DNA of 64,000 bases, from the IMG/VR virus record IMGVR_UViG_3300031994_000013, positions 103,251 to 167,250 of that record; one strand, written 5' to 3'. Below, in pieces: positions 31,313 to 48,307 of this stretch. A program made the translations under genes and the position numbers. Within the stretch, counting starts at the first letter, position 1, and each line of letters begins with the position of its first letter. Source of the DNA: a virus. Its lineage: Duplodnaviria; Caudoviricetes. The notes under the pieces are model-generated. The model ran no database searches and was not told the origin of the DNA. It saw only the letters and a list, made by a program, of their open reading frames with translations.

Positions 31313-33319
31313 TCATGATTGAGCCTCCCAACTATATGTAGGCGTACCATTTGATACAATGCATTTAAGGATATAGGTGCCATTTTGACTAGGCGCGGCG
31401 GGTAGAGGACTTGATGTGAGCGTCATCTGACCGTTAGCCTGTTTGACCATGTATAAGCCATCTGAATCAGCAAGGTCAGGCAGATGTTGAAGCTTGTCAC
31501 GAAGGTTAGACATATACTTCGTGCTATGACCGACCGGAATTGCGACCGCGCGCGTATCCACGAATCGCTCGGTTCCGAAATCATCGACGATTTGCACTTC
31601 TGGATAGGATGCGGCCTGCTCGGTTGTTGGAGTAGCAAGTTCATAGACCAGCATCACACCGGACATGGCAGTTTTGAAGGCGGCGGCAGTAGTATAAGTG
31701 GTATCCATAACTCTTAAAATCGGATCTGACTTAGAGTTTGTAACTGATATATATCCATTCGGCAAGGTTGAATATTCATATGCACCACTTTGATACTTAG
31801 TGCATAATAGATTGCCATGATACAGCATCTCATATACAGTCGGACAGCTAAACTGATTTGCTGTAGTTGTTTCTATCCAATCCAATGTTCCCAAATCTAC
31901 CACACCGTATCGTCTTGTTACCGTTCCATCGGCTTCATATGTATCACCGTCATAGTAAATATGATTGTTCGCATCTAGCTTCGGGACGCCACGAAGGGTA
32001 AGATTTTCTTGTAACGCATAAGTATGTTTGGAATATGGCTCATACTCTCCGTTGCGATAGCCAGTCCAGGAGAGGTTAAGGCAAATATCATTCTTATATG
32101 TATTGCCATATGATTGAGTCATATAGAAACGAATGTAATGGGCGTTCAGCGGCATCGTAAATGTGCGTGTGCTTATACCAACGCAATGCCCAGATGACAG
32201 CCAGCTTGCTGCGCCATCTAGTTCCGGTGGATCAACAATATTTCTATTTTCGTCCAAAAACATCGTCCATGCAACCCCAATTGGCATACTAAACCAATAC
32301 TTTGCGCCCGGAATAACAGGAATCAGGTTCTTAGAACGAATTTGGTCGGTCCTTGAAATGTTCGCGCCAGTCGATGTGCTAAATGTGCCTTGCTCCCACT
32401 CTTCATCCCACTGGTTGAATCCAACAGTCTCATGCTGGGTGGTTTGGACACTCATCAACTCGCCGGGATTGTAGGCATAGTGGGTCAATGGAAACAGACT
32501 TTTAAATAATTCAGCCCCGGCATTAGATAATGCTCCCTGCATAGAGTAAATGTAGTCAGCCACAGTATTTCCAAACATCATTGTTAAATCACAGTATTGC
32601 GGCCAGAAAGTAATCGGCTCATTGATTATGGTGCCAGATGCGATAGAAAGAGTGAAGCCAGAATATCCAAGATAATCAGGAGCAACATCAATTCGTTTAT
32701 AAACGCCATAATTTTTATTGTTTAGATGCCAGCCGCTCCAGTTATCCATAATGCAAATACCTTTTTCAATTTGCGCGCCACCGCGAAAATATACATGATT
32801 ACCAATACGGAATAAATTCGCGCGAAGCGACAGCGTAAAATCAGCGCTCGCGCCCTCAGATGTCGTTGAAACAGTATAGCTTCCATCACGATGATCCACA
32901 ACAGTAACATTATCTCTTGTTGTAGAAGCATCGGTATCTCCCTGTTTATACAACTGATTCCACACAATCGTTCCGCCAACAATTTTTTCAAGCTTACGAT
33001 TGCCGACATCAAGTGAGCCACCAGTTTTACGATAAACATAAGGCACACTATCCTCTGTGAATTTAGAGGAAAGCAATTGTTCGGTACTACCAGAAGTAAG
33101 CTCTTCGTAATAGCCATCAACATTGGCTTTTATATTTAATTGTTCTCCAACTGCCTTTGCTTCCGCAGCATCGCCTTCTTGCGTTAAGGTTGTATCTAAA
33201 GAAACTAAATTATTATCAATCAGTTCTATTCCTTCTTCTATATGATTCATTAAAGCAGCAGTAATCGTATCACCGCTTTCCCAGGTATTTTTTACATATG
33301 TTGCCATAAATACCTCCAT
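31313..33319 (-). CDS. putative tail fibre/minor structural protein
   Basis: YVKNTWESGDTITAALMNHIEEGI; VYELATPT. Confidence 0.7.
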   Translation of the reverse strand: MEVFMATYVKNTWESGDTITAALMNHIEEGIELIDNNLVSLDTTLTQEGDAAEAKAVGEQLNIKANVDGYYEELTSGSTEQLLSSKFTEDSVPYVYRKTGGSLDVGNRKLEKIVGGTIVWNQLYKQGDTDASTTRDNVTVVDHRDGSYTVSTTSEGASADFTLSLRANLFRIGNHVYFRGGAQIEKGICIMDNWSGWHLNNKNYGVYKRIDVAPDYLGYSGFTLSIASGTIINEPITFWPQYCDLTMMFGNTVADYIYSMQGALSNAGAELFKSLFPLTHYAYNPGELMSVQTTQHETVGFNQWDEEWEQGTFSTSTGANISRTDQIRSKNLIPVIPGAKYWFSMPIGVAWTMFLDENRNIVDPPELDGAASWLSSGHCVGISTRTFTMPLNAHYIRFYMTQSYGNTYKNDICLNLSWTGYRNGEYEPYSKHTYALQENLTLRGVPKLDANNHIYYDGDTYEADGTVTRRYGVVDLGTLDWIETTTANQFSCPTVYEMLYHGNLLCTKYQSGAYEYSTLPNGYISVTNSKSDPILRVMDTTYTTAAAFKTAMSGVMLVYELATPTTEQAASYPEVQIVDDFGTERFVDTRAVAIPVGHSTKYMSNLRDKLQHLPDLADSDGLYMVKQANGQMTLTSSPLPAAPSQNGTYILKCIVSNGTPTYSWEAQS

Positions 33320-33405
33320 AGTTTTGACCTTTTTTTCATTTTAATAGTATGATTATTATCTATTTTTAACTTCTTTTTATTTTATTTTTTTTATTACATA
33401 AATAC

Positions 33406-33434
33406 TTGACTTTTTTCAAATTTTATGATATAAT
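33406..33434 (+). promoter_or_regulatory. sigma-A-type promoter, extended -10
   Basis: TTGACT-17-TATAAT with TG. Confidence 0.8.
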
Positions 33435-33510
33435 TATTATGTTGAAAGGGGAAAGGAACCCAATCAACGAAATATAAATTGCGGGTAGGGAACCGCAAGG
33501 AGACTATATT

Positions 33511-33846
33511 ATGGCTATTAAAATTTATTCAGACAAAACTAATAAGTATTATGATACCGTTCAGGCGGCAGAAGATGCGGAATTTAAGCTAAAGGAGCAA
33601 GAAAACCGCGATAAGATTCTCGCTGAGCGTAAAGCGGCTGAACTAAAGGAAAAGAAGGAGCAGGAAGCTGCCGAGCGTAAGGCTGCGGCCGACAAAGTTG
33701 AAAGCGCGCGTAAGGCGATGGTTGAAGCTCAGAGGAAGTATCGTGAGGAACTTGAGGCTTTTATTAAACAATATAAGACCTATCACTATTCTTCTAATAA
33801 GGTTGAAGACATTCCTATTCTCTTTGATTTATTTGATTGGCTATAA
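33511..33846 (+). CDS. charged coiled-coil protein
   Basis: strong RBS, biased codons. Confidence 0.7.
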   Translation: MAIKIYSDKTNKYYDTVQAAEDAEFKLKEQENRDKILAERKAAELKEKKEQEAAERKAAADKVESARKAMVEAQRKYREELEAFIKQYKTYHYSSNKVEDIPILFDLFDWL

Positions 33847-33872
33847 TAATTAGGCGGCATAACCGCCTATAT

Positions 33873-33943
33873 GCACCATTGATGTAGTGGTAACATTGCT
33901 GCCCTCCAAGCAGCCTTCGCCCGTTCAAATCGGGTATGGTGCT
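33873..33943 (+). tRNA. tRNA-Gly(TCC), C33 variant
   Basis: acceptor GCACCAT/ATGGTGC, U73, loop CCTCCAA. Confidence 0.85.
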
Positions 33944-33944
33944 C

Positions 33945-34290
33945 GCGCCATTTCTTCAAATCTGTATGGTGCAAAAACAGATTTGACGTTGGGGCTATGG
34001 AGCAAAACGCTAGAAGAAATTGCTACCGTGGTTTGCGATAATAACCGCCAAGAGCTTATCTTGCCTTGTAGGTCATTTCCGGAGTGACATAAGATTCTTC
34101 TCTATCTACTATGCCGATAGCATGAAGGTATAGGCGTGTATCACAGCGCGAAATGAATCGTGGAGAATACGGCATTGATAATCCGCTCGGCTTGCCTTCG
34201 AGATAGGCAACGCGTACTTGACCCGCGAATCAAGAACGCAGCCGTTTATAATTTGAGTAGAACTGACAATCCTATAAAAATTATAAACGG
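33945..34290 (+). ncRNA. putative structured ncRNA
   Basis: several nested stems, no credible ORF. Confidence 0.5.
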
Positions 34291-34395
34291 TTTTTATTTG
34301 ACTTTTGATAGAAATTATAATATAATATTATTTAGAAAATGACAAAAGATTATGTAGAGATAATACACAATTAGTAAGGTTGCTTGTAAAAATAT

Positions 34396-34424
34396 TTGAC
34401 TTTTAATAAAAATTATGTTATAAT
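34396..34424 (+). promoter_or_regulatory. sigma-A promoter, duplicated at 34583-34611
   Basis: identical ATTTGACTTTTAATAAAAATTATGTTATAATAAATAT twice. Confidence 0.85.
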
Positions 34425-34625
34425 AAATATACAAAAGAAAGGAATGGAAAATATGCTAATTGAACAAGATAATGAAAAAGAAAATCTTTATAAAATTATT
34501 GATTTTCTAATGGAAGAAATCAAAAATTTACGAAGGGAAAATGCTCGATTAGTAGAACTTCTTGAAAAGAAAGAATAACCATTTGACTTTTAATAAAAAT
34601 TATGTTATAATAAATATGTTGTTAA

Positions 34626-34696
34626 GGGGATTTAGTTTAACGGTAAAATAGATGCTTTGCAAGCATTTGTCATCAGTTCGATTCTGATAGTCTCCA
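34626..34696 (+). tRNA. tRNA-Ala(TGC)
   Basis: cloverleaf, G3:U70. Confidence 0.9.
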
Positions 34697-34697
34697 T

Positions 34698-34770
34698 TGC
34701 GGGATGGCCAAGTGGTTAAGGCAATTGGCTCATAACCAATAGACCGTGGGTTCAAATCCCACTCCCGCTA
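34698..34770 (+). tRNA. tRNA-Met(CAT), initiator-like
   Basis: loop CTCATAA; 1:72 mismatch; lacks the three G-C anticodon-stem pairs. Confidence 0.85.
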
Positions 34771-34775
34771 TTTAG

Positions 34776-35396
34776 TTGTCGGTATTCTTCTGTAAAAACC
34801 GTCACTGCTGGTCAGTTCTACGATGCAGAAAGCAGTATAAACACGGGGCTGTAGAAAAGATAAAGCGAAAAGGTAGAGGCACTGCCTGGGTTCGAGTCCC
34901 AGCGGGTGGCGTGGAGCGTAGAGCCAAAACCCTGATGCACTTAGAGTCTAGCTTCGCTTGAGGGCGGCCACCCAAGAGCGCATACTGAGCCCATAGAGAG
35001 TGGGCGGTGGGGCACGCCACCTTAAACTTAAAGGTGCATCCGCATATCGTTTGCGGTATATAACCATTCTTTGAAATGGTAATCTAGAGGCTATGGTAAG
35101 AGGACCAGATAAGTAGTTGATAGTGAAACAATAACCTTGGCTGAAAAAGAGGATGGAAGGAAAAGGCCCGATTCCTTACCAAATAGCGCTAAAAATTGGT
35201 AAAGCGATGCGGTTCAATCGCACCTCTCACACAGTGTAGGCCACATTGCCTTTGGTGGGTTTGTATTTGGGTAAGACACCTGAATATTGGCAAAGGCGCA
35301 AATGCGTCGGAAAGCCCAATTTCCCAACATACTTTCATGCGTGGGTGGAATAACAAGAGAAAGCGCAGCTTTCGGTCTGTGGTTAATAAAACCGAA
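34776..35396 (+). ncRNA. putative large ornate ncRNA
   Basis: about 620 nt, GC-richer than flanks, many hairpins, embedded T-arm. Confidence 0.6.
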
Positions 35397-35456
35397 TAGG
35401 CGGTAGCAGCAATACTTATAGAAAATTTTGGGAATTAAAATTTTTTATGCCGCCTA
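35397..35456 (+). ncRNA. CAGCAA/Y-like RNA 1
   Basis: TAGGCGGTA/TGCCGCCTA stem + CAGCAA. Confidence 0.65.
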
Positions 35457-35463
35457 GTTATGT

Positions 35464-35535
35464 GGCGTGTTAGTCAAGTGGTAAAGATAACTGGTTTTCA
35501 CCCAGTTGGCTGGAGTTCGACTCTCCAACACGCTA
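35464..35535 (+). tRNA. tRNA-Glu(TTC)
   Basis: cloverleaf, loop TTTTCAC. Confidence 0.9.
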
Positions 35536-35854
35536 TATTGGCAACGTCCGTTACAATTGCTAGCGCGAGCGAGTATGAAAAGACTACGCTTGGGGCGACC
35601 TCTGAGCTAATCCGGAAAGGAAAGCGTGCGGCGGCTAGGCGTCGTAGAAAGTCCAAACTTTCTATGGTAAGGAAAAACTTATTTAATATTGCCACCCAAT
35701 GGGAGCCTCTAAATAAGTCAAGAGTAGAAAAACCCTAGTATTTTTATTGGAATAGAGGGTAATCTTTTGCGGAGATTACGGAAAATGAAAACCGCTCCCG
35801 CCGAACTGCCGGTAGTAGCAAACACCTATTCGTAGGTAAAGGCAGCAGTTTTAA

Positions 35855-35927
35855 CAAGGTGTATCGTAGTAGCTAACGGGCGTCACTTGGGATGACGAAA
35901 TCGGGAGTGCAAATCTCTCCACCTTGA
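35855..35927 (+). tRNA. tRNA-Pro(TGG)
   Basis: cloverleaf, loop CTTGGGA. Confidence 0.88.
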
Positions 35928-36210
35928 TTTCTGCTTGTGTTTAATGAGCACGAGCCTTGTAAAAGAAAATATAGTTCAGCGGGATACTGGCTTATACTAG
36001 TTGACATTTTCTTTAATACAATCTCCAGCGTGAGTAAAAACCGCCTTGGACTGGGTGAGATGCCTATCGTTGCGGCCGCCAACGAAGTAACGTAAACAGT
36101 TATGAGCGGTTATAATTACCTTGCTATCAGGTCTTAATTTAGGATAGCTACTTATAGGTAAGACTATACGGGTGCGGCGTTCGTCAGCTCAGAGATAGCA
36201 TGCCGAATTT

Positions 36211-36351
36211 GCCCGGTTAGCTCAGTCGGTAGAGCATGCGGCTGTGACAGAGAGATGATTTGGTAATCATGTGAGGGACGCCCACGTTGCGAGTTCAATT
36301 CTCGCCTCTGTATTAACCGCAGTGTCGGGGGTTCGAGCCCCTCACCGGGCG
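36211..36351 (+). tRNA. tRNA-Asn(GTT) interrupted by tRNA-like insert 36246-36313
   Basis: TGCGG CTGT|TAA CCGCA after removal. Confidence 0.9.
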
Positions 36352-36450
36352 GTCAAGTTGGAGGATAGAACAGGCAGCTATCGCCCATTGTTAGGAGATG
36401 CGGGAGTGTCGCCCCGCCCAGCATTAATTTTATAAGAATGAGGTAAATTT

Positions 36451-36999
36451 ATGGCTCTAAAAATTCTCAGCCCATGGCAGGTTTGGTATGCTGATGTAAA
36501 GGCAATGTTTCAGGAAGATAATGAAATTGGTGTAATATTTGATAATGATACATTAGAGCTTACTGTGTATGTAGAGAATGCAGATAAGGCTGATGCCCTA
36601 GGACAGCTTCTACCTACTGAAAAGCATTTTGGTAATCAGGTTGTAAAGGTTAGCGTCATTCCCGCGAATGTACCTAAGACCGCATTAAAGCTAAATCGTG
36701 CGAATCTTTATGAAAGGGCATTTGCTGATAATCCTGCACTAGAAAAGGTAGTGACAATTGAAGGCGTTATGTCTAATACACTAACTTATGTTGTCTTTAA
36801 GAAACAAGTAGTACAGTATTATATTGATGACCTTGGCGATATCTATGGTAATAGAACTACTTTGTATCAAGAGATTGCAAAGAATATATTTGAAGCAGCG
36901 GAAGGCGTGTTTTTCTGTACGGCAAATGAAACAGAATTTAAGTTAAATATGACTAATCATGGTTGGATTACAACTACTTGTTGTAGTTCAAGTAATTGA
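36451..36999 (+). CDS. hypothetical phage protein
   Basis: 182 aa, VFKKQVVQYY.DDLGD. Confidence 0.7.
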   Translation: MALKILSPWQVWYADVKAMFQEDNEIGVIFDNDTLELTVYVENADKADALGQLLPTEKHFGNQVVKVSVIPANVPKTALKLNRANLYERAFADNPALEKVVTIEGVMSNTLTYVVFKKQVVQYYIDDLGDIYGNRTTLYQEIAKNIFEAAEGVFFCTANETEFKLNMTNHGWITTTCCSSSN

Positions 37000-37058
37000 C
37001 TTTTTTCTAAATTTATGCTATAATAAATATATCAAAAGGGAACGAAAGTTCCCAATAT

Positions 37059-37130
37059 GGCCCTATGGTCTAATGGCTATGATACGTGACTGTCTATCAC
37101 GAGGTTGCAGTTCAATTCTGCGTAGGGTCG
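37059..37130 (+). tRNA. tRNA-Asp(GTC)
   Basis: cloverleaf, G73. Confidence 0.9.
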
Positions 37131-37138
37131 TTGCCTTA

Positions 37139-37258
37139 AAGACGGTTCAGCAATTATTTTGAAAATTTATGCAGTATAATAAAGGGGCGGGTTCGAATCC
37201 CGCAGCATAAGGTGGGCACTTATGTTTGGTGTAGCGGTAGCATTCATTTCGCCGTCTT
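37139..37258 (+). ncRNA. CAGCAA/Y-like RNA 2 with permuted tRNA domain
   Basis: AAGACGG/CCGTCTT; T-arm, closed acceptor, D-arm order. Confidence 0.8.
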
Positions 37259-37264
37259 GATTTT

Positions 37265-37352
37265 CCTACTCAAGCATAATTGGTACATGCCACGGCCTTA
37301 TAAGCCGGAGACCCTCACAAGGTTAGTCCACGTTCAAGTCGTGGGAGTAGGA
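37265..37352 (+). tRNA. tRNA-Ile(TAT) with long variable region
   Basis: CCTACTC/GAGTAGG, loop CTTATAA, A73. Confidence 0.8.
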
Positions 37353-37355
37353 TTT

Positions 37356-37472
37356 TAGACCTGTCAGCAATTATTTCTTTTGCATGTGGAGCACGTATGT
37401 GATGGTTCGAATCCATCTTTGGGCCGATGCGCCCAAATAGCTCAATGGTAGAGCGCGTAATAAGTGGGTCTA
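37356..37472 (+). ncRNA. CAGCAA/Y-like RNA 3 with permuted tRNA domain
   Basis: TAGACC/GGTCTA; GATGGTTCGAATCCATC, TTTGGGC/GCCCAAA, TAGCTCAATGGTAGAGC. Confidence 0.8.
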
Positions 37473-37551
37473 GTTTTTATATGGAACTAATCTATCCTGA
37501 GTTCCTGCGGTTCAAGGATAGGGCGGTGGCTGCCCAAAGTCGCAATTATAT

Positions 37552-37669
37552 GGCCCCTTAGCCCAATTGGCAGAGGCAATAGACCATCAATAGCCAGAGC
37601 GAAATGAGGTCATCACTCATATTGATGTTCAAAATCTATCAAGTATCAGTTCGAATCTGATAGGGGCTA
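37552..37669 (+). tRNA. tRNA-Leu(CAA) interrupted by mini-tRNA insert 37585-37628
   Basis: ATAGA C|TCAAAA TCTAT after removal. Confidence 0.85.
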
Positions 37670-37748
37670 TTAAAAAAATCGCGGGACGCGAAGAAAAAAG
37701 AGTAATGCGTCTGCTTATATAATACTATTTATGTAGGAGGCGATAATT

Positions 37749-38354
37749 ATGAAAAAATGGGAAAAATTCTCTGAAAAAGAGTTGCTTGAGATTATTCAAA
37801 ATAGTCGAAGTTATAGAGAAGTCGCTCAAAAATTAGGTTATAATCCTGATAGTGGTAGTGGTATGAAAGCTATTAAGGATATGATAGAGACGAAACAATT
37901 TGATATATCGCATTTTTTAGGGCAGGGTTGGAATAAAAATAATTTTGATTATTCGCGTTTCCAGTATGGGAAAAATATTAAAGCCGTATTAATGTTAGAT
38001 GCTTTAATTAATTTACGCGGCAGAAAATGTGAAAAATGCGGTTTAACAAAATGGGAAAATTTTCCTATTCCACTAGAAGTACATCATATTGATGGAGACC
38101 ATTTGAATAATACATTAGATAATTTACAAATTCTTTGCTGCAATTGTCATGCTTTAACAGCGAATTTTAAAGGACGAAATCAGCTTAGCGTAGAACGACA
38201 AAATGAAAAAGTATCTGAAGAACAATTAGTAGAAGCATTAAAGACAACTTCTAATGTTCGTCAAGCTCTTTTAAAAGTTGGCTTGACTAGTCGTGGGCAC
38301 AATTATGATAGAGCATATGATTTGATATATAAATATCAAATAAAACAACAATAA
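37749..38354 (+). CDS. HNH homing endonuclease
   Basis: CEKC, LEVHHIDGDHLNN..NLQILCCNCH. Confidence 0.9.
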   Translation: MKKWEKFSEKELLEIIQNSRSYREVAQKLGYNPDSGSGMKAIKDMIETKQFDISHFLGQGWNKNNFDYSRFQYGKNIKAVLMLDALINLRGRKCEKCGLTKWENFPIPLEVHHIDGDHLNNTLDNLQILCCNCHALTANFKGRNQLSVERQNEKVSEEQLVEALKTTSNVRQALLKVGLTSRGHNYDRAYDLIYKYQIKQQ

Positions 38355-38359
38355 TATTA

Positions 38360-38462
38360 TAGGCGTTTTCAGCAATTACCTTTATAGGTTATGGGTTCGA
38401 GTCCCATTTTGCAATCCTTTTTGCGAATCGTCCAATAGGTAGGACAATAAATAAGACGCCTA
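38360..38462 (+). ncRNA. CAGCAA/Y-like RNA 4 with permuted tRNA domain
   Basis: TAGGCGTTT/AGACGCCTA; ATGGGTTCGAGTCCCAT, TTTGCAA/TTGCGAA, GTCCAATAGGTAGGAC. Confidence 0.8.
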
Positions 38463-38791
38463 GTATTTTAAAGATGGATTTTTTCCATCTTATTTTTATA
38501 ATTGACTTTTCTCTAAAATTATGATATAATTTTTTTAGAAAAAAGGAAATGAGGAAATAATATGGATAAGGAAACTCTAAGTAGCACTGCGACAAAAAGT
38601 CAATTTATTGATTCTATTTATAATTGGTTAATGCGCACGCTCGATGAGAAGGGCAACGGACAATATAAGGAATGTTTTCAAAAAGAGGGCTCAAGTATAA
38701 TTTGTTCTCTTCCAGATAATTATTTTAATAGTTATACTATTCCTCATGGCACTAAAATTGAAATGAAATTTATTAGTAAAAAGGGATAATA

Positions 38792-39226
38792 ATGAAAATT
38801 TATACTTCTTATTTCGCGCAAATGCGTAATTTTCCTAAAAATCTTGTTTCGCTTTCAACCGCAGTTTGGAATCCTAAATGGTTGCCGCTTGGGCGCGATA
38901 AGCAAGGTCATATTTGGCTAGATATTCCGCCGCTAAAGCCAGGATATAATTGTAATGGCTTATGTAATGGAAAATGTAATCCAAAGCATCCACAGGATTG
39001 TGCTTTTCTTCAAGAATATCGCAAACAGTTGAACGGTATAGATATTCATAATATTCTAAATGAATTACAAGTTTTAAAAAATGATATTGAAGTTGCGGAG
39101 AGCCTAGAGAATGTAGAGTTTGTGCTATTATTTTTTGAGACTCCGGATAATCCTTGTAGTGAGCGGCAAGTCGTTATTGAATGGCTTAAAGAAAATAATA
39201 TCGAAACTGAGGAATGGAGAAAATGA
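38792..39226 (+). CDS. DUF488-like protein
   Basis: MKIYTSYF, LLFFETP..CSER..W. Confidence 0.6.
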   Translation: MKIYTSYFAQMRNFPKNLVSLSTAVWNPKWLPLGRDKQGHIWLDIPPLKPGYNCNGLCNGKCNPKHPQDCAFLQEYRKQLNGIDIHNILNELQVLKNDIEVAESLENVEFVLLFFETPDNPCSERQVVIEWLKENNIETEEWRK

Positions 39227-39719
39227 TAAAAATTATTAAGCATGGGCACGCGCAATATCATATGACATGTAAATTTTGTGATTGTTTATTCTCTTTTGAA
39301 GACAGTGATATAAAATTTTCTGGTAATCAGCGAGATTGGATAGAATATATCGAATGCCCAGAATGCGGGCATGAGATTGATATTGTTAATCGTGCGTTCT
39401 ATAAGTTTAAGGAGAGTAAAGACTAATATAATGAAAGATAGGAAAATTTTTTTTATAGCAGTGTTAATTGCTATATTACTTTTTATAGGCGTAGTATTTT
39501 TACAAGAATCGTCCTGTAACATAGTATATAATAATGGCATTTGTACAAGATGCGGAGGACACTATATTTTTCAGCAGGCGGTAGGACATCGATATAATAT
39601 TCGATATATTTACCAATGTGATAAATGTGGCAAGTTAATTGAAATTAATTCTATTCGTTAATTATTTGACTTCTTTCTAAATTTATGCTATAATTATTAT
39701 AGAAAGTGAGGGAAAGAAA

Positions 39720-40067
39720 ATGAAGGAATACAGTATGAAATCTCATAATCGCCGCGCTCATCAGCGTTGGCTTAATAAGTTTTGCCGCGATGTTAATAAA
39801 TCTATTTATGATGATAATCTGTGGCGCGGGCGCTTTGTTGTAGAACAGGTTTCTACTCAGATGGATTGGTTTGAGGATAAAAGCGGTGGTATCCTTCGTT
39901 GTGTTCTTCGCTTTCGTGATAAGAAAACTGGCTGTACTAAGCTTTGTTATACCGATTGTCTTGAAGTTGCTTGGAATATGTTTTTTCAGATGAATGACTT
40001 TATTGTAAAAGATTGTGCTGTTTGGGATAAGGAAGACCCTTATAAGGAGATTGAATCATGGAGATAA
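39720..40067 (+). CDS. hypothetical phage protein
   Basis: promoter and RBS upstream; DNLWRGRF. Confidence 0.65.
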   Translation: MKEYSMKSHNRRAHQRWLNKFCRDVNKSIYDDNLWRGRFVVEQVSTQMDWFEDKSGGILRCVLRFRDKKTGCTKLCYTDCLEVAWNMFFQMNDFIVKDCAVWDKEDPYKEIESWR

Positions 40068-40265
40068 AGAGACCCGTTACTGTAGAGTTTAATTATTATA
40101 ATGATAATAACGAATTTGATGACGATGTTAATTTAACTTTTAGAACTACGCCAGATATGACTATTGGGCAATTACACGCTTTTTGTAAGCGTTTTGCTAT
40201 TGCACTTAGTTTTTCACCAAAGCAGGTTGAAGAAGCTTTTGGTGAAGATATAGAAGATAGAATTT

Positions 40266-40350
40266 AGAAGGGTGCCTGAGTGGTCAATAGGAGCGGTTTG
40301 CTAAATCGTCGTAGGGTAACCTACCGCAAGTTCGAATCTTGTCCCTTCTG
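40266..40350 (+). tRNA. tRNA-Ser(GCT)
   Basis: class II cloverleaf, G73. Confidence 0.9.
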
Positions 40351-40431
40351 TTCGCCAATTTAACTGGTTGGCGCGCCAGCTATGGATTAAATAGCGACCC
40401 AGCTCGCGGGCATTCTAAATAGCGAGCACGT

Positions 40432-40503
40432 ACCCTTCTAGGCTAACGGAAAGACCATACGGCTACGAACCGTAAAATGAAAGTTCGATTCTTTCGGAGG
40501 GTG
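40432..40503 (+). tRNA. tRNA-Arg(ACG)
   Basis: TACGG CTACGAA CCGTA; imperfect D stem. Confidence 0.8.
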
Positions 40504-40511
40504 TCAATTAT

Positions 40512-40621
40512 GCGGTGGTATCCAAGCAGACAAAGGGGCCAACCGGTAAGTTTGGTGCCTACGCCGGTATGCTAGCTAGAACCGTGGGCTTCGCAGGTGC
40601 AAATCCTGACCCGCCGCACCA
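40512..40621 (+). tRNA. aberrant Tyr-like tRNA with enlarged variable arm
   Basis: GCGGTGG/CCGCCGC-ACCA; loop CGGTAAG. Confidence 0.5.
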
Positions 40622-40629
40622 TTTATTAT

Positions 40630-40713
40630 GCGTCAGTGTGACTAGTAGCGAGGTCAGGTGACTGTAAATCACCCACATTAGAAACATCGGTGGTGCAATT
40701 CCATCCTGGCGCA
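40630..40713 (+). tRNA. tRNA-Tyr(GTA)
   Basis: GGTGA CTGTAAA TCACC. Confidence 0.85.
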
Positions 40714-40720
40714 TTAGCCG

Positions 40721-40792
40721 AGACCAGTCAGCAATAATTGTATTTTTTGCTAGAAATGCAGCGGGTCGGCTCCGCCTAAGATGAACTGGTCT
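40721..40792 (+). ncRNA. CAGCAA/Y-like RNA 5
   Basis: AGACCAGT/ACTGGTCT + CAGCAA. Confidence 0.7.
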
Positions 40793-40798
40793 AGTTTT

Positions 40799-40946
40799 GT
40801 GCCCGTAGCTCAGTTGGTAGAGCACTTGACTTTGGGGTAGTAATGTAAAGAGCATACTATTAGAGACGTCTAATAGAGGACAAGGTGCAATACCTTGATA
40901 CTCCACCATAATCAAGGGGTCGCGAGTTCGAGCCTCGCCGGGCACA
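40799..40946 (+). tRNA. tRNA-Lys(TTT) interrupted by tRNA-like insert 40834-40908
   Basis: CTTGA CTTT|TAA TCAAG after removal. Confidence 0.9.
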
Positions 40947-40950
40947 TTAT

Positions 40951-41022
40951 AGGAGCTTAGGACAATGGCTAGTCTTTCTGTCTCCAAAACAGACGATGGG
41001 CGTTCAAATCGCTCAGCTCCTG
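40951..41022 (+). tRNA. tRNA-Trp(CCA)
   Basis: cloverleaf, loop CTCCAAA. Confidence 0.9.
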
Positions 41023-41038
41023 TCACTTATGAAAAAAT

Positions 41039-41114
41039 GCGTCTGAACCCTGACGGTCGGGGGAGGGCCTGCAAAACCCTTTTTTATTAGTTGGTTCAAC
41101 TCCAACCAGGCGCT
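41039..41114 (+). tRNA. tRNA-Cys(GCA)
   Basis: loop CTGCAAA, U73. Confidence 0.85.
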
Positions 41115-41842
41115 TAAAGGAGAGATAATATTATGAATGAACTTAAAAGATTAGTTAACCAAAAGACTGACCGCCCCGTAACACCTACGACTACAACAAC
41201 CGTGCCAGTCTCACAGTCTGTAACAGCCACTTCCCTTCAATATGGTTGGATTTGTCCTAAATGTGGCTCTGTGATGGCACCAAATCAAACAAGTTGTATT
41301 TTCTGCATTCCAACTTTTAATGTTACGACTGCGACGCCAAATATGTCACCTGTAGTAATTTGTACTAGTAAAGGTTATAGTCGGGACTGAAATATTTGAC
41401 TTTTATTCAAATTTGTGCTATAATATATACATAAAGAATGAAAGAAAGGATTGATAACAGTATGCGTAAGTTGGTTTTTTCTTCTTCTTGGAGTAGGGTT
41501 AAGCAAGCGAAGATGCTAGATGACCCTCAGTAACTGGCGCTTTATCATCAGTAGGTGATACGAAATTACGGTAAGTCGTTATACGGCGCCACCGTTTTTT
41601 TAAAAAAAGAAAGGTAGAATAAGTTATGTTTAGTTATGTAGTTACTTTTTTCGACAATGAAATTAGAGCAACCACGACCGAAAAGGGCATTGTGGCGGCG
41701 GAAACCTATGGCAAAGCCGCGGATAGGCTTGTGAGCTTTTATGGAAAATCTTTTCTAATGACTATGGCTCTTACTGAACTTAATGACATTCTAACCGAAG
41801 AAGAAATTACAGAAGAGTTTGAAACTCAGGGAGAAGATTAAA

Positions 41843-42088
41843 ATGTATCATCGTACTCATATTCGTTTAATTACACAAACCGATGCAGCAAATTTCGTAG
41901 CGAGTCTTAATCGTGATGGCACGACTGACCACTATGTGCTTGAAACAGTAGATGGTAAGGTCCGTGTTAGTGCCCGTTCATTACTTGGCGTGCTTTATTT
42001 TGTTTCAGAGCATAATAAGGAAACTTATTTAGTTAATGAAACTAATGATGGAGTGATTCCAAGCGGTATCGACCAGTATCGTATTTAA
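41843..42088 (+). CDS. HPr-like protein
   Basis: AANFV...VSARSLLGVL (Ser46-like motif). Confidence 0.6.
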   Translation: MYHRTHIRLITQTDAANFVASLNRDGTTDHYVLETVDGKVRVSARSLLGVLYFVSEHNKETYLVNETNDGVIPSGIDQYRI

Positions 42089-42101
42089 TGCGATACTTTG
42101 A

Positions 42102-42232
42102 TGGCGTGTAGCCAAGTGGTTAAGGCACAGGACTTTCAGGCAATAGCATAAGTAATGCCATAGAATAATAGTTCAAATCTATTTTGCCTGTGACTCCTGT
42201 ATTCGTAGGTTCGACCCCTACCACGCCAGCCA
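42102..42232 (+). tRNA. tRNA-Gln(TTG) interrupted by tRNA-like insert 42137-42191
   Basis: CAGGA CTTT|GAC TCCTG after removal; encoded CCA. Confidence 0.92.
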
Positions 42233-42237
42233 TTTAT

Positions 42238-42299
42238 TAGGCTTTGTCAGCAACTATTACAAAAATTTGACTTGAAATCAAAGGAACAAAGAAAGCCTA
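42238..42299 (+). ncRNA. CAGCAA/Y-like RNA 6
   Basis: TAGGCTTT/AAAGCCTA; internal TTTGA CTTGAAA TCAAA. Confidence 0.75.
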
Positions 42300-42309
42300 G
42301 AAATTTTTA

Positions 42310-42409
42310 TAGACCAGCACAGCCATTTATTTTAACAATGGATAAATTATTTTTTTCTCAATAAAAAAAATATAGAAGGTTCAAATCCTTCAAAATTAAA
42401 ACTGGTCTA
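42310..42409 (+). ncRNA. CAGCCA/Y-like RNA 7
   Basis: TAGACCAG/CTGGTCTA; CTCAATA loop + T-arm GAAGGTTCAAATCCTTC. Confidence 0.7.
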
Positions 42410-42764
42410 GTTTTTATTACAAGAAAGGACGCAAAATAATGGAAGTAATGTATCATCGTAAGAACGGTAAGCGCTATGAAGTTTATGATTATATAACAGA
42501 TAAGCATACCATTGCTATTTGTTACGATACGGCACAGGCGGGGCAGTGCGGCCAGGGTTGGTGTAGAATTCCTTTGAAAGAATTGGTTCCAGAATGTCAT
42601 GCAAATAAGACTACAGGGCAATTTGAGTCTAACACTATTAAAAATGCCATTAAACGAAATTTACAACCAGTAGCTTGGCGTTGTACTGATGGTACAGTAT
42701 TTGACCATTCTAAGATTGATGAAGCAATTGAATATCAAAGAACACTTATGACGACGGAGCAAGA

Positions 42765-43205
42765 ATGAGACAGTTAATAATCGCGCGAAAAGATTTACAG
42801 ATGAGCCCTGGTAAATTGGCGGCACAAGTAGCACATGCAAGTTGGGCATTTTTATCGCAGCAAATTCGCAGCTGTACTATTAACGAACAAGATACTCAAA
42901 ATACGTGGATTAAATTATGTATTAATACTGATACGTATAATGAATGGTTTTGTGGTATCTTTACAAAAACTGTTTGCGAAGCTAAAAATTATAATCAACT
43001 GATGAAAGCAGTTGACTATGCACGCGAATTGGGGTTAGAAGAGGGAGTAGATTTTTTCCTCATTAAAGATGCTTGTCTCACGGAGCTTACTCCCGAAGAA
43101 ACTGATGAAAATGGTGTTGGACGCACATTAACTTGTATTGGTTTTCGTCCATTACCTGACGAAATCGCCCATGCGATTTCAAAGCATTATCAACTTTATA
43201 AGTAA
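42765..43205 (+). CDS. pth2: peptidyl-tRNA hydrolase Pth2 family
   Basis: RKDLQMSPGKLAAQVAHA, IKDACLTE, TCIGFRP. Confidence 0.9.
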   Translation: MRQLIIARKDLQMSPGKLAAQVAHASWAFLSQQIRSCTINEQDTQNTWIKLCINTDTYNEWFCGIFTKTVCEAKNYNQLMKAVDYARELGLEEGVDFFLIKDACLTELTPEETDENGVGRTLTCIGFRPLPDEIAHAISKHYQLYK

Positions 43206-43208
43206 ATA

Positions 43209-43338
43209 ATTGTGGTGGCGGAATAGGTAGACGCTAGACGGTTTGAACCCGTGCATCAAGGAAGACTTGGCTTGGCTATGAGGTCATAGATTTTACTCAG
43301 AAGGAAATCATGTAAGGTGCAAATCCTTACCCACAATT
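43209..43338 (+). ncRNA. tRNA-like RNA (Leu-type D/T arms, no normal anticodon arm)
   Basis: ATTGTGG/CCACAAT, GGCGGAATAGGTAGACGC, GTAAGGTGCAAATCCTTAC. Confidence 0.7.
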
Positions 43339-43427
43339 TAGAATGTAACGGCTGATTACATATACATTTTCGCAATCTATATAGATACAATCAAGTTACC
43401 CCATGCGATGCAAGGTAACATCAGCCA

Positions 43428-43513
43428 TCGGCCTACACAGCAATTAATTTCAAGAAAATTCTATCTGTTGAAGAAAGCATATTCTAGCGGGTTGAAAACC
43501 CGTAATAGGCCGA
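43428..43513 (+). ncRNA. CAGCAA/Y-like RNA 8
   Basis: TCGGCCTA/TAGGCCGA; GCGGG TTGAAAA CCCGT. Confidence 0.75.
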
Positions 43514-43518
43514 GTTAT

Positions 43519-43708
43519 GCTCTTGTAGCTCAATGGTAGAGCAGCGCACTTGTCGAGTTAGTTTAAAGTAAAACACCCGAATCACAGGGAAAAGACCGTA
43601 TGATAAACTAATTGATTGACGAATCAATTAGGCGAAGATATGTGAGTTCGTAACTCACACTCGGCTCCAGTAATGCGCAGGTTGTAGGTTCAAGTCCTAT
43701 CGGGAGCT
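43519..43708 (+). tRNA. tRNA-Thr(TGT) interrupted by tRNA-like insert 43552-43669
   Basis: GCGCA CTT|GTAA TGCGC after removal. Confidence 0.9.
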
Positions 43709-44526
43709 TTTAACTGTCATCTTAGGAAGTGTTATTTATGAGGACGACGGCAGAAAAACGACATAATGATTATACGAAAGCAATCCGTAAGCGTAGGATT
43801 GACCGCGAGACACAGCCCAGTGGATATGACTGGTACAATAATCTTCATCAATATAGTAAAAATAAGATTCATTGTTCTTGTCCAATGTGTTCTGTGAAAA
43901 CTAATAATCGCGGCAATAATGGTTGGAAACCCAATACCTTATGGCGTATCACCGATCAAAAGAAGTTGGATGCTTTACAATATAACGAGGAAGATGAATA
44001 ATCTTCCTCGTTTTTTATTTGACTATTTCTTAAAATTATGATATAATTTATATACAATATTGGATAGGCGAAATATTAATCAAGAAAAGAGGGAGCCATA
44101 ATGGAAAAGAAAGAATTAGTTGCAGGTAAGCGCTATCAATGGCCAGATGTAACTCCTGGCGGCCGCATGATTAATGGTCTTTTTACTGGAAAATACGAAA
44201 AGAACGGTAACGCTTTATTACAGTGTCGTAATGGCGACATCTGGTCTGTTTCACCACAAAATTGTGAGCCAATGCCAAGAAAGGAAAAATGATATGAAGA
44301 ATTTTATTAAATTAACTAATACTGATGGGACTGCACTTTATATTAATTATAAAATTATTGAAAGTTTATCTCAACATAAAGATAAAGATTATACTTATAC
44401 TATCCTAGCCACAATTGGGTCAGAAGATGGTTTTTATAGAGTAAAAGAATCACCAGAAGCAATTCTAGCATTAATTGATGTTTTGACAAATTAAAAAAAA
44501 TATAGTATAATGAAAGGAATGATAGT

Positions 44527-45012
44527 ATGCGAAAGCCTATTCTTTATATACTCTGCGGTTGTCCAGGATGCGGAAAAACATATTGGGCAAATAAATTTAT
44601 GTATAATCTTATTAATACAAAGTATGTTTCGCGCGATGAAATTCGCCTTTCTTTACTTAATAATGATGAAGAATATTTTTCACACGAAGAAGAAGTGTTT
44701 ACTAAATTTGTAGCTATGATAAGAGCTAATTTAGTGGATGGATATGATTGTATTGCAGACGCCACTCATTTAAATGTAAAATCTCGCAAAAAGCTTATCC
44801 ATGCTCTTGATTTTTATGGTAAATTAGATTGTCAAATTATTTTTGTATATTTCAACGCTCCTTTGGAAGTATGTCTTGGCCGCAACGAACAGCGTGAAGG
44901 TCGTGCTCGTGTTCCTGTAAATGTAATTCAATCTATGCGAGAACGCTTTCAAAAGCCAGCTATGACAGAGGATGAAAGATGTATTGGACTTATGCTAATG
45001 AAAGGATATTAA
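44527..45012 (+). CDS. polynucleotide kinase-like P-loop protein (AAA_33)
   Basis: GCPGCGKT, SRDEIR, DATH, RNEQR. Confidence 0.85.
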   Translation: MRKPILYILCGCPGCGKTYWANKFMYNLINTKYVSRDEIRLSLLNNDEEYFSHEEEVFTKFVAMIRANLVDGYDCIADATHLNVKSRKKLIHALDFYGKLDCQIIFVYFNAPLEVCLGRNEQREGRARVPVNVIQSMRERFQKPAMTEDERCIGLMLMKGY

Positions 45013-45290: not shown

Positions 45291-45956
45291 ATGGGAAAGA
45301 TTTATAAAGTTACAAATAAAATTAATGGTAATATTTATATTGGCCAAACACGACAACCAATTAATACTCGTTGGTTAAAGCACTGTTATTCAGCAGAAAC
45401 CTCTAATGATAAAGATTATTTTTGTCCTCTACATAATGCTATTCGTAAATATGGACGAGATAGTTTTCTAATAGAAGAAATTGAAGACTGTGATAATGAT
45501 TTATTAAATGAACGTGAACGTTATTGGATTCAATTTTATGATAGTTATAATAATGGTTATAATGCCGCTTTGGGTGGAGAAGGGCATACTAAATATGACT
45601 ATGATAAAATTATAGATTATTTTTTAAAACATGGCAATAATCTTTTAGCTACTTGTCAAGAATTTAATATTTATGACCAAGTGGTGTATACAGCTTTACA
45701 ATCTAAAAATATTGATTATAAAGCATTAAAAAATATAAATCCAAAATGTAAATATGATAAATGGATTCTATTAGTAGAACACAATCTTATTTTCAAACAC
45801 ATAACGGACATTGACCTTTATTTACATAAAAATAATGCACATGGAAATATACGACGATGCCTAAATGGAATTACAGAAAAAGCTTATGGCTATCATTGGA
45901 AGGAGATAGAAAAAGATGGAAATCTTTTTAACCTCGGATACTCATTTTTCACATAA
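45291..45956 (+). CDS. GIY-YIG homing endonuclease
   Basis: KIYKVTN..YIGQT, RW..H, E..WI, GYN; NUMOD1-like AYGYHW tail. Confidence 0.9.
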   Translation: MGKIYKVTNKINGNIYIGQTRQPINTRWLKHCYSAETSNDKDYFCPLHNAIRKYGRDSFLIEEIEDCDNDLLNERERYWIQFYDSYNNGYNAALGGEGHTKYDYDKIIDYFLKHGNNLLATCQEFNIYDQVVYTALQSKNIDYKALKNINPKCKYDKWILLVEHNLIFKHITDIDLYLHKNNAHGNIRRCLNGITEKAYGYHWKEIEKDGNLFNLGYSFFT

Positions 45957-46509
45957 TCAACAATTTATATATGAGTCCCGTGGTTTTACAAATGTTCAAG
46001 ACATGAATGAGACAATAATGGAAAATTGGAATAAAATTGTACCATATGACGCACTTATTTATCATCTTGGAGATATGGCATTAAATAATTTAGATGATGC
46101 AATTAAATATATTAAAAATTTAAATGGTAAAATTATTTGGCTTCGGGGTAATCATTGTACTGATAATAAAATTACTAAAATTCTTGAAAACTGTCCAAAT
46201 GTAACAATGCCAAATGAAATGTATGCCACTGTACTGAAATATAGGAAACTAACTTGTTATCTTTCACACTATCCTACCTTGACAGCCAATTACGATGATA
46301 AACATTTCAGCCAGCATGTAGTGAATTTTCACGGTCATACTCATCAGCAAACTAACTGGCTTAATCCAACGAATCCATTTATGTATCACGTGGGAATGGA
46401 TTCTCATAATTGCACACCAATCCATATTGAAGAGGCAATAAGTGACATTCGCAACAGATGGAATGAAATCGGTCAGCTTCCAGTTTCTATGCAGCCAGAA
46501 GATATATGA
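45916..46509 (+). CDS. calcineurin-like metallophosphoesterase
   Basis: SDTH, HLGD, GNH, SHYP, HGHTH. Confidence 0.9.
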   Translation: MEIFLTSDTHFSHNQQFIYESRGFTNVQDMNETIMENWNKIVPYDALIYHLGDMALNNLDDAIKYIKNLNGKIIWLRGNHCTDNKITKILENCPNVTMPNEMYATVLKYRKLTCYLSHYPTLTANYDDKHFSQHVVNFHGHTHQQTNWLNPTNPFMYHVGMDSHNCTPIHIEEAISDIRNRWNEIGQLPVSMQPEDI

Positions 46510-48228: not shown

Positions 48229-48307
48229 TCAAAATTATGTTATAATAAATACATAAAGAAAAAACCTGCGGTCTTGACAAAAGACTAAGATGAAAAGGAG
48301 AAAAAAT

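Follow-up and report, generated by a model that had tools for sequence, protein, structure and literature searches.

Minihelix-type insert in the anticodon loop of a phage tRNA-Leu(CAA) gene and a boundary rule common to tRNA-mimicking guests

In a large phage of the sheep rumen, a gene for a leucine transfer RNA (tRNA) with the anticodon CAA, tRNA-Leu(CAA), is interrupted in its anticodon loop by 44 nucleotides (nt) that are themselves built like the top half of a tRNA. The gene occupies positions 37552-37669, and the insert positions 37585-37628, of a 64,000-nt stretch of DNA (referred to here as the window), which corresponds to positions 103,251 to 167,250 of IMG/VR record IMGVR_UViG_3300031994_000013 (Duplodnaviria; Caudoviricetes) and forms the terminal 64 kilobases (kb) of a 167,250-base-pair (bp) phage genome with direct terminal repeats. 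Other tRNA genes of the window are split by inserts of the same kind, which we call guests, and one rule fits every case that we parsed: the insert begins at the 5´ end of a tRNA mimic and stops after its discriminator or CCA. Within this family of tRNA-mimicking guests in phage anticodon loops, the 44-nt insert is the smallest known member. The guests may be introns that are removed by the enzymes of tRNA end processing, a route that we set out below together with the evidence that bears on it.

The 5´ exon of the tRNA-Leu(CAA) gene (37552-37584, + strand) comprises the 5´ strand of the acceptor stem, a D arm with a 3-bp stem and an 11-nt loop, the 5´ strand of the anticodon stem and C32. The 3´ exon (37629-37669, + strand) contains U33, the anticodon CAA, A37, A38, the 3´ strand of the anticodon stem, a 5-nt variable loop, the T arm, the 3´ strand of the acceptor stem and the discriminator A; no CCA is encoded. 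These assignments were made from the alignment to the Rfam tRNA model and the sequence, as well as, for the 5´ exon, from ARAGORN run with introns allowed. The guest, likewise on the + strand, opens with the 5´ strand of an acceptor-like stem, CATCAAT (37585-37591), which forms seven Watson-Crick pairs with ATTGATG (37621-37627). A 12-nt linker (37592-37603) with a conserved 8-nt box (GCCAGAGC) leads to a T-arm mimic (37604-37620) made up of ATGAG (37604-37608), the loop GTCATCA (37609-37615) and CTCAT (37616-37620), and the acceptor-like 3´ strand ends in a single discriminator-like U at 37628 (37621-37628 together; parsed with a tail of 1). Every one of the 12 guest pairs is of the Watson-Crick type. 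The 5-bp stem runs straight into the 3´ strand of the 7-bp stem, with no intervening base, just as the T stem of a tRNA adjoins its acceptor stem. The insert has the stem arrangement of a tRNA top-half minihelix, a shape that serves as substrate for RNase P, RNase Z and the CCA-adding enzyme: a 7-bp stem on a 5-bp stem with a 7-nt loop, and an unpaired discriminator. When the sequence was cut out again, it agreed exactly with a preliminary description of this DNA, including the 7-bp stem, the 12-nt linker, the 5-bp arm and the final T.

The sequences on either side of the insert make up a tRNA. The Rfam tRNA model (RF00005) matched 37552-37669 with 41.0 bits against a cut-off of 29 bits (E 4e-6) and assigned the extra bases to the anticodon loop. 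ARAGORN run without introns missed the gene, and with introns allowed it reported a tRNA-Leu(caa) with a 44-nt intron. As a control for chance, the 51 nt between the two strands of the anticodon stem were shuffled 20,000 times, and the score of each shuffle was that of its best excision among the 48 that give a 7-nt loop and a tail of 0-5 nt. Twelve of 12 pairs were found in one of the 20,000 shuffles and at least 11 of 12 in 19. The 7 + 5 bp geometry reported earlier stands. For the real sequence, the best parse was unique, and the minimum-energy fold of the insert has the same form. The claim that only a removal that includes the terminal T gives a 7-nt loop was too strong. The cut predicted by ARAGORN, 37584-37627, also leaves seven bases (TTCAAAA). 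Removal of 37585-37628 is nevertheless favoured, because of where the helix ends and because uninterrupted family members (see below) have C32.

The four other split tRNA genes of the window carry guests of varying size and tail, all on the + strand. A 68-nt guest with the tail U (36246-36313; 11 of 12 pairs, found by ARAGORN with introns) lies between positions 35 and 36 of tRNA-Asn(GUU) (gene 36211-36350). The same site is occupied in tRNA-Lys(UUU) (gene 40799-40946) by a 75-nt guest with the tail ACCA (40834-40908; 11 of 12 pairs) and in tRNA-Gln(UUG) (gene 42103-42229) by a 55-nt guest with the tail U and a D-arm-like hairpin (42137-42191; 12 of 12 pairs). In tRNA-Thr(UGU) (gene 43519-43708), a 118-nt near-complete cloverleaf mimic with the tail UCCA (43552-43669) is located between positions 34 and 35, as indicated by the parse and by compensatory changes in guest and host tRNA. 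The guests of the family range from a bare top half (44-48 nt, with a linker of 12-13 nt) to a near-complete cloverleaf mimic with a D arm (118 nt). Default ARAGORN missed these four genes as well. Because default tRNA finders miss or mislabel split genes, phage tRNA inventories and the codon-usage inferences drawn from them are biased.

For a wider sample, ARAGORN with introns was applied to the window and to 16 stretches from 11 related phage genomes, recruited via their RNA-ligase and tail-protein genes; labels of the form G0xx and L### denote the related phage genomes and the IMG/VR loci, respectively, that were used for comparison. The output comprised 297 uninterrupted tRNAs and, leaving aside those that merely span neighbouring tRNAs, 19 predictions with an intron. 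For nine of the 19, namely the five of the window and G012 Thr, G007 Leu(UAA), G007 type II (UAU) and G006 Gln, we went through each of the 48 possible excisions that restore a seven-base loop, allowing tails of 0-5 nt; in four mini-guests the pairs were counted directly, the MAFFT alignment not being in structural register. In all nine, the single best excision was a 7 + 5 arrangement with 11-12 of 12 pairs. The tail was one U in three cases (window Asn, Leu and Gln), NCCA in five (window Lys, window Thr, G012 Thr, G007 type II (UAU) and G006 Gln) and ACAA in one (G007 Leu(UAA)). The minihelix type first proposed for the Leu insert is common to nine interrupted tRNAs that were parsed without prior assumptions, each a 7 + 5 bp mimic with a 1-nt or NCCA-type tail. 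After each of the nine excisions, the loop again has U33 and, at position 37, a purine, and its anticodon suits the tRNA body (GTT in Asn, TTT in Lys, TTG in Gln, TGT in Thr, and Leu). Because the restored loops carry the anticodons expected from the tRNA bodies, two wrong ARAGORN labels were changed, from Gln to Lys (gene 40799-40946) and from Glu to Gln (gene 42103-42229).

Further copies turned up in other loci: a third variant of the Thr guest in L341, Gln guests in L357 and L450, and a Thr guest of the G012 type in L408. Split genes of this kind are found in at least five other phage lineages. The remaining ten of the 19 predictions include three group-I-sized introns in Leu genes of relatives and four further putative inserts. 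Three of the 19 are inserts of ~470 nt in anticodon loops of related phages (L177 3934-4484 and 14018-14561, and L181 8439-8996, all on the minus strand), nearly all of which is taken up by an open reading frame (ORF) for a PD-(D/E)XK endonuclease of the PDDEXK_5 family (PF11645, 101-109 bits); the non-coding RNA left over is too little for a group I core. As a separate observation, the tRNA-Lys guest (40834-40908) combines a G3-U70 wobble with A73 and an encoded CCA; these are the identity elements that alanyl-tRNA synthetase uses in charging minihelices. The other guests do not have this set, and the combination could have arisen by chance.

The tRNA that holds the 44-nt guest is itself unusual. 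Because its variable loop has only 5 nt, it lacks the long arm of type II tRNAs and is not a standard bacterial tRNA-Leu. A scan of IMG/VR with the D-arm motif gave at least 126 matches in at least 120 loci (L212-L331), and 118 of the 126 matches listed are uninterrupted tRNAs of 73-78 nt, all with Leu anticodons (TAA, CAA, TAG, GAG, CAG and AAG). Since these 118 carry Leu anticodons exclusively, the short-arm tRNA-Leu is a widespread phage family, whose members, as defined here, share the D-arm motif of a 3-bp stem and an 11-nt loop, have a variable loop of 4-5 nt and A as the discriminator, and carry an anticodon of the Leu box. The interrupted gene belongs to it: it has the motif, a 5-nt variable loop, A73 and, after excision, the anticodon CAA. 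An uninterrupted CAA member of the family (L170 9684-9759) has the loop CTCAAAA, which is precisely the loop predicted after excision of 37585-37628. Together with the uniform Leu anticodons of the D-arm family, this upholds the identity first given to the tRNA. The insertion site at 32/33 is backed by an unrelated contig (L325), in which a 47-nt guest of like build sits at 32/33 of a short tRNA-Leu(UAA). In relatives, type II tRNA-Leu genes coexist with the short form.

Comparison of alleles supports the view that these inserts are real, selected introns, because there is an intron-free allele, because host tRNA and guest show compensatory changes and because a homologous 48-nt insert occurs in another phage. 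The intron-free allele belongs to a sibling guest: an uninterrupted type II tRNA (UAU) of the window and the interrupted copy in G007 differ by a single 48-nt gap that corresponds to guest plus ACCA. None was identified for the tRNA-Leu(CAA) gene itself. The type II (long variable arm) tRNA with the anticodon UAU (window 37264-37353; L183 3225-3360, minus strand) is an observation in its own right, as UAU reads the isoleucine codon AUA and bacterial type II tRNAs are normally Leu, Ser or Tyr.

The compensatory changes come from three guest-bearing tRNA-Thr genes, in which 149 of 150 cells of the nested structure are paired. Two-sided changes are seen at seven pairs, of which three belong to the host tRNA and four to the guest; two of 500 shuffles were as good, and sliding the partners abolished the signal. 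With three sequences, and the structure drawn from one of them, the support is modest, and these two-sided changes indicate that both host tRNA and guest have been kept under structural selection after insertion. The homologue of the 44-nt guest is a 48-nt insert at positions 34/35 of a type II tRNA-Leu(UAA) in G007. Its T arm (16 nt) and the 8-nt linker box are identical to those of the 44-nt guest, and although six of the seven pairs in its acceptor-like stem are different (four changed on both sides, two on one side), the stem is still paired. In addition, Thr and Gln genes hold guests with a common D arm. Because related guests thus occur in different tRNAs (two Leu tRNAs; Thr and Gln), the guests move between tRNA genes. 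A search of IMG/VR with a pattern of linker box and T arm found only three loci, identical and of the G007 type, and the same pattern had no match in metagenome contigs. The 16-mer alone was found at 24 loci, 21 of them chance matches in coding sequence.

How might such inserts be removed? Because the implied cut sites are the sites of tRNA end processing, we tentatively propose, with confidence that stops a little short of even, that the guest is cut at its tRNA-like ends by host RNase P and by an enzyme of the RNase Z type, and that a phage RNA ligase reseals the loop. RNase P cuts pre-tRNAs at the 5´ end of the acceptor stem, and RNase P and RNase Z leave 3´-OH and 5´-phosphate ends, which an ATP-dependent RNA ligase joins without healing. 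In the proposed route, the full 118-nt tRNA-Leu precursor would be transcribed and, since the guest resembles a tRNA top half, host RNase P would cut between 37584 and 37585 at the guest 5´ end, leaving C32 with a 3´-OH. An RNase Z-type enzyme would cut between 37628 and 37629, after the discriminator U, leaving U33 with a 5´-phosphate. The acceptor, D and anticodon stems would keep the tRNA halves together, and an ATP-dependent RNA ligase, most simply the DraRnl-type enzyme of the phage, would join C32 to U33 to give a 7-nt loop with the anticodon CAA. A phage kinase and phosphoesterases would be on hand should the ends need healing. Of all this, the sequences show the anatomy, the family, the exact boundaries and selection on tRNA and guest alike; that the insert is removed, and by which enzymes it is cut out and the loop sealed, is inferred. 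In PMC7479834, archaeal RNase Z is described as cutting after the discriminator in CCA-less substrates or after an encoded CCA in CCA-containing ones, and as requiring the acceptor stem and not the other arms. The two classes of guest tail, 1 nt and NCCA-type, correspond to both of these reported cut positions.

The candidate sealing enzyme is encoded at 57433-58761 (+ strand) and resembles ATP-dependent RNA ligases of the DRB0094 (DraRnl) type, its predicted domains being an OB fold at the N terminus and a nucleotidyltransferase domain. Possible end-healing enzymes are a polynucleotide-kinase-like P-loop kinase (44527-45012, + strand; PF13671, 74 bits; bacterial Pnkp kinase region, E 1e-11) and two calcineurin-like phosphoesterases, one at 45916-46509 (+ strand; PF12850, 32.9 bits) and one at 59233-60132 (+ strand; PF00149, 42.9 bits) that adjoins the ligase gene. 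In the phage genome we found no EndA, RtcB, RNase Z-like gene or CCA-adding enzyme; the control for the EndA family (PF01974) matched four archaea. The phage relies on its host for tRNA end processing: 15 of 16 phage tRNA genes encode no CCA, and 15 of 16 have T at position -1. The host is probably a member of the Clostridia, to which the occurrence of ligase relatives in Clostridia genomes is a weak pointer.

Several observations weigh against the proposed route. The guest T loop has U55, C56 and R57 and lacks U54 and A58, and so is non-canonical, as had been pointed out in the preliminary description; the identical loop is present in the homologous 48-nt insert of the other phage, and none of the 11 guest T-loop sequences has lost the third-position C or the fourth-position purine. 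For the insert by itself, the minihelix is the minimum-energy structure, but with a z of only -1.24, and the minimum-energy fold of the 118-nt precursor is not the nested cloverleaf (z = -2.08); thermodynamics by itself is weak support. Between the guest +1 position and the anticodon stem of the host tRNA, the leader consists of C32 alone, which is tight for RNase P. Guests with an NCCA tail require a cut after CCA, a position that the Bacillus enzyme disfavours: according to PMC7479834, RNase Z of Bacillus subtilis is slowed ~1520-fold by CCA with Mg2+. The ligase assignment rests on matches below the curated cut-offs (PF21189, 23.9 bits, and PF09414, 22.3 bits, both under 27 bits; TIGR02306, E 2.7e-15, 56 bits against 151), and a sequence search found no relative of the ligase among solved structures. 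In favour of the route, a PF09414-type RNA ligase is encoded by all four near-complete intron-bearing phages (one type in G000, G006 and G007, another in G012 with 78 bits). Because relatives that do not carry such inserts (G001, G002 and others) have the same ligase, there is no specific co-occurrence of ligase and insert.

RNA data also count on this side. Of 24 sequencing runs that matched, three were from RNA, and we inspected contigs assembled from these (X3, X5 and X24) as well as from one DNA run (X1). A 2085-nt contig from RNA run X3 carries the insert-containing form across 36281-38365 with no differences. Among the best 15 of 46 joints in the RNA-library contigs, the joint 37584/37629 was absent and no spliced form was seen; assembled RNA contigs lose rare forms, and the RNA contigs may reflect carry-over of DNA. 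Two apparent signs of splicing at sibling genes were discarded. At the Lys gene (40833), the joints and loose ends run on into uninterrupted tRNA-Lys of other organisms, and a 117-nt skip at the Thr gene occurs in a relative's contig, where one side is just 25 nt. Finally, the phage encodes a complete healing set (a kinase and two phosphoesterases), which is needless for ends made by RNase P and RNase Z.

Because healing enzymes are superfluous for such ends, a route by other cutting enzymes stays alive, and we regard it as unlikely. Here the insert would still be removed and the tRNA used, and a phage or host endonuclease would measure from the tRNA body or leave 2´,3´-cyclic phosphate and 5´-OH ends, which the phage kinase and phosphoesterase would heal before the ligase sealed them; the tRNA shape of the guest would serve folding, ligase recruitment, a life as a small RNA, or mobility. 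The ~470-nt anticodon-loop inserts of the relatives, which are neither tRNA-shaped nor group I, hint at such a shape-independent path. However, no candidate endonuclease was found, EndA is absent, and this route leaves unexplained both the compensatory upkeep of the guest stems and the fact that the boundaries of all nine parsed guests fall at +1 and the discriminator or CCA of the mimic. That same regularity bears on the possibility, which we judge more improbable again, that the insert is retained and the 118-nt tRNA-Leu transcript works in its full form, whether to divert or soak up host anticodon nucleases or defence proteins that bind tRNA, or simply as one more tRNA-like RNA. The RNA-library contigs, with the unspliced form only, agree with retention; the window is rich in non-decoding tRNA-like RNAs (weak YrlA-like matches, repeated boxes), and the split tRNA species (Lys, Gln, Asn, Leu and Thr) include targets of known anticodon nucleases. 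A decoy, however, has no need of excisions that in nine of nine cases restore canonical 7-nt loops with anticodons matching the tRNA body; moreover, a sibling gene has an intron-free allele, and the split genes are the only ones that the phage has for their anticodons.

Least probable in our estimate, and indeed very unlikely, is that a selfish mobile tRNA-like element has struck the tRNA genes and left them dead, so that the boundaries reflect how the guest got in (for example, a mature tRNA-like RNA ligated into a cut anticodon loop and then reverse transcribed) and not how it gets out. Mobility fits this account, given the 44/48-nt guest at 32/33 and 34/35 of two Leu tRNAs and the common-D-arm guests of Thr and Gln, and so do the tails, which match what stands at the end of a mature tRNA (NCCA) or of one cut by RNase Z (N). 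Dead genes would nevertheless not be expected to look as these do. The exon helices still co-evolve with the guest in place (three pairs in tRNA-Thr), all exon features are intact in five genes of one genome, and the guests themselves are structurally selected.

Several conventional explanations were rejected. A group I intron needs a P3-P8 core of ~200 nt or more, for which 44 nt are too few, and the Rfam Intron_gpI model had no match at E<=1 in 33000-42000 or at E<=0.01 in 36000-44500. No self-cleaving ribozyme was matched within 33000-44500. A bulge-helix-bulge intron does not fit, as the junctions flank one end of a helix and EndA (PF01974) is absent from the phage. There is no U run of the kind expected for a terminator or attenuator, no target-site duplication at any of the five junctions, and, as regards excision of an RNase III type, the cuts fall at or beyond the end of the helix and not within a duplex.

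Protein-dependent splicing of tRNAs is textbook knowledge for archaea and eukaryotes, whereas only self-splicing group I introns are, to our knowledge, established in the tRNA genes of bacteria and phages, and we know of no bulge-helix-bulge splicing machinery in bacteria. In phage T4, polynucleotide kinase-phosphatase and RNA ligase 1 reseal anticodon loops that have been cut by PrrC. The likeness to the present case lies in a phage kinase, a phosphoesterase and an RNA ligase acting on a broken anticodon loop held by the tRNA body. Unlike in T4, the candidate ligase here resembles the DRB0094 type and not Rnl1 (a search for Rnl1 matched nothing, its control included), and the break in T4 is made by a host defence nuclease and is not the removal of an encoded insert. 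Group I introns in bacterial and phage tRNAs, such as that of tRNA-Leu(UAA), resemble the guests in that they lie in the anticodon loop, vary in position and are mobile (bioRxiv 10.1101/2020.01.27.920355). In contrast to these, the 44-nt insert cannot hold a core, and the cutting proposed here would be done by proteins or ribonucleoproteins in trans. Archaeal and eukaryal tRNA introns, which are cut by EndA/Sen and joined by RtcB or Trl1, are likewise removed by enzymes and followed by ligation, and in archaea they include non-canonical positions such as 32/33 (PMC4090602; PMC3400036). The bulge-helix-bulge of these introns has two 3-nt bulges that are 4 bp apart, whereas here both junctions are found at the same end of one helix, at +1 and the discriminator. 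An embedded tRNA mimic that recruits RNase P and RNase Z, with cuts at its 5´ end and after the discriminator, is described for MALAT1 mascRNA (PMC8457004) and plant mitochondrial t-elements (PMC1920247). The flanks in those systems are simply separated; here they are tRNA halves that need rejoining.

The closest precedent is found in Lak megaphages, whose tRNAs carry introns called "enigmatic", with alleles with and without that of tRNA-Thr(TGT) and, in the parts of the paper seen, no mechanism; the intron of tRNA-Thr(TGT) was said there to be one that may itself code for a tRNA (Devoto 2019, PMC6784885). Like the guests, the Lak introns are short, conserved, non-group-I inserts in the anticodon region of phage tRNAs, and their boundaries are fixed by intron-free alleles. 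The tRNA-like Lak insert is in the same tRNA species, tRNA-Thr(TGT), as the 118-nt guest. By its description, the Lak tRNA-Thr intron is the same phenomenon as the 118-nt Thr guest, and this kind of insert has therefore been seen before. That paper gives no rule of anatomy, mechanism or minimal form; the terms "RNase P" and "RNA ligase" do not occur in it, nor "splic" in the preprint (PMC6784885). The present case differs in that the guest is a 44-nt top half only, lies in a tRNA-Leu and belongs to a 167-kb phage with the standard code. In the literature searched, no account came up of introns that are tRNA-shaped or of the minihelix type and are removed by the enzymes of tRNA end processing, and the phrase "tRNA-like intron" did not occur in the matched papers.

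What is new here is the minimal 44-nt form, the short-arm tRNA-Leu as its host, the boundary rule, the evidence for selection and mobility, and a mechanism that can be tested. The short "enigmatic" introns of phage tRNAs have been unexplained since 2019, and five in one genome now obey a single anatomical rule, which makes the puzzle directly testable with three enzymes and one transcript. Should the proposed route be true, RNase P and RNase Z would serve as splicing endonucleases, phage RNA-repair ligases would gain a housekeeping role in intron removal, and a compact natural cassette for conditional tRNA maturation would be at hand. Going further, it is possible, although we lean against it as a whole, that there is a third tRNA-splicing pathway in bacteria and phages. 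In this pathway, introns disguised as tRNAs, with a 44-nt top half as the smallest disguise, would be cut out by RNase P at the 5´ end and by RNase Z after the discriminator or CCA, both serving as splicing endonucleases, and the products sealed directly by a phage repair ligase. The reverse chemistry would account for their spread: once a defence nuclease had opened an anticodon loop, a mature tRNA-like RNA would be ligated into it and copied back into DNA, which would explain the mature-tRNA ends of the guests.

The five split genes lie in a region of the window (33.8-43.8 kb) that is densely packed with tRNA genes and other small RNAs. All 15 matches of the Rfam tRNA model in the whole genome are located within the window. 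A 7.6-kb stretch spanning all five split tRNA genes is present in sheep-gut metagenome runs. Among GenBank phages, no relative of the region or of the Thr gene was found except ordinary tRNA pieces and the HNH gene, and a search with neighbouring proteins gave one locus only, which has no tRNAs. The HNH gene (37749-38354, + strand) encodes a free-standing endonuclease and starts 80 nt 3´ of the split tRNA-Leu gene; it matched PF01844 with 22.1 bits against a cut-off of 21.4 bits as well as annotated phage HNH homing endonucleases. It may be linked to the spread of the insert or to immunity. A cluster of genes for the care of RNA and tRNA includes a PTH2 peptidyl-tRNA hydrolase (42765-43205) besides the kinase, phosphoesterases and ligase, and a GIY-YIG endonuclease gene (45291-45956) overlaps the start of the phosphoesterase gene at 45916-46509.

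The window also contains repeated anticodon-less tRNA-like RNAs (~37131-37260, 37353-37545, 38355-38470 and 40715-40800). They have a common box (GTCAGCAAT-like), a T arm and a closed acceptor-like hairpin followed by a D arm, the permuted order seen in YrlA-type Y RNAs; the Rfam YrlA model gave weak matches of 36.1 and 30.4 bits, its cut-off being 69. A gene for a DUF2828/DUF7788 protein lies at 48290-49834. In G013, G014 and G019, long matches to the tRNA model proved not to be guests of the kind described above and instead correspond to a different anticodon-less tRNA-like RNA and an odd tRNA-Tyr. The tRNA-shaped RNAs of G013 and G019 (L188 157-274 and L190 158-274) are 117-118 nt long, and in them a conserved two-hairpin module, which bears the box common to the Y-like RNAs of the window, replaces the anticodon arm. 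Matches to other RNA families were seen at 36354-36425, 35932-36076, 33439-33497 and 41038-41114 of the window: three of the four fell below their cut-offs (cow-rumen-3, 66.3 against 86.7 bits; cow-rumen-4, 41.8 against 48.5 bits; tRNA-Sec-like, 33.3 against 47 bits), and one, to the skipping-rope RNA, lay above it (51 bits against 36.7).

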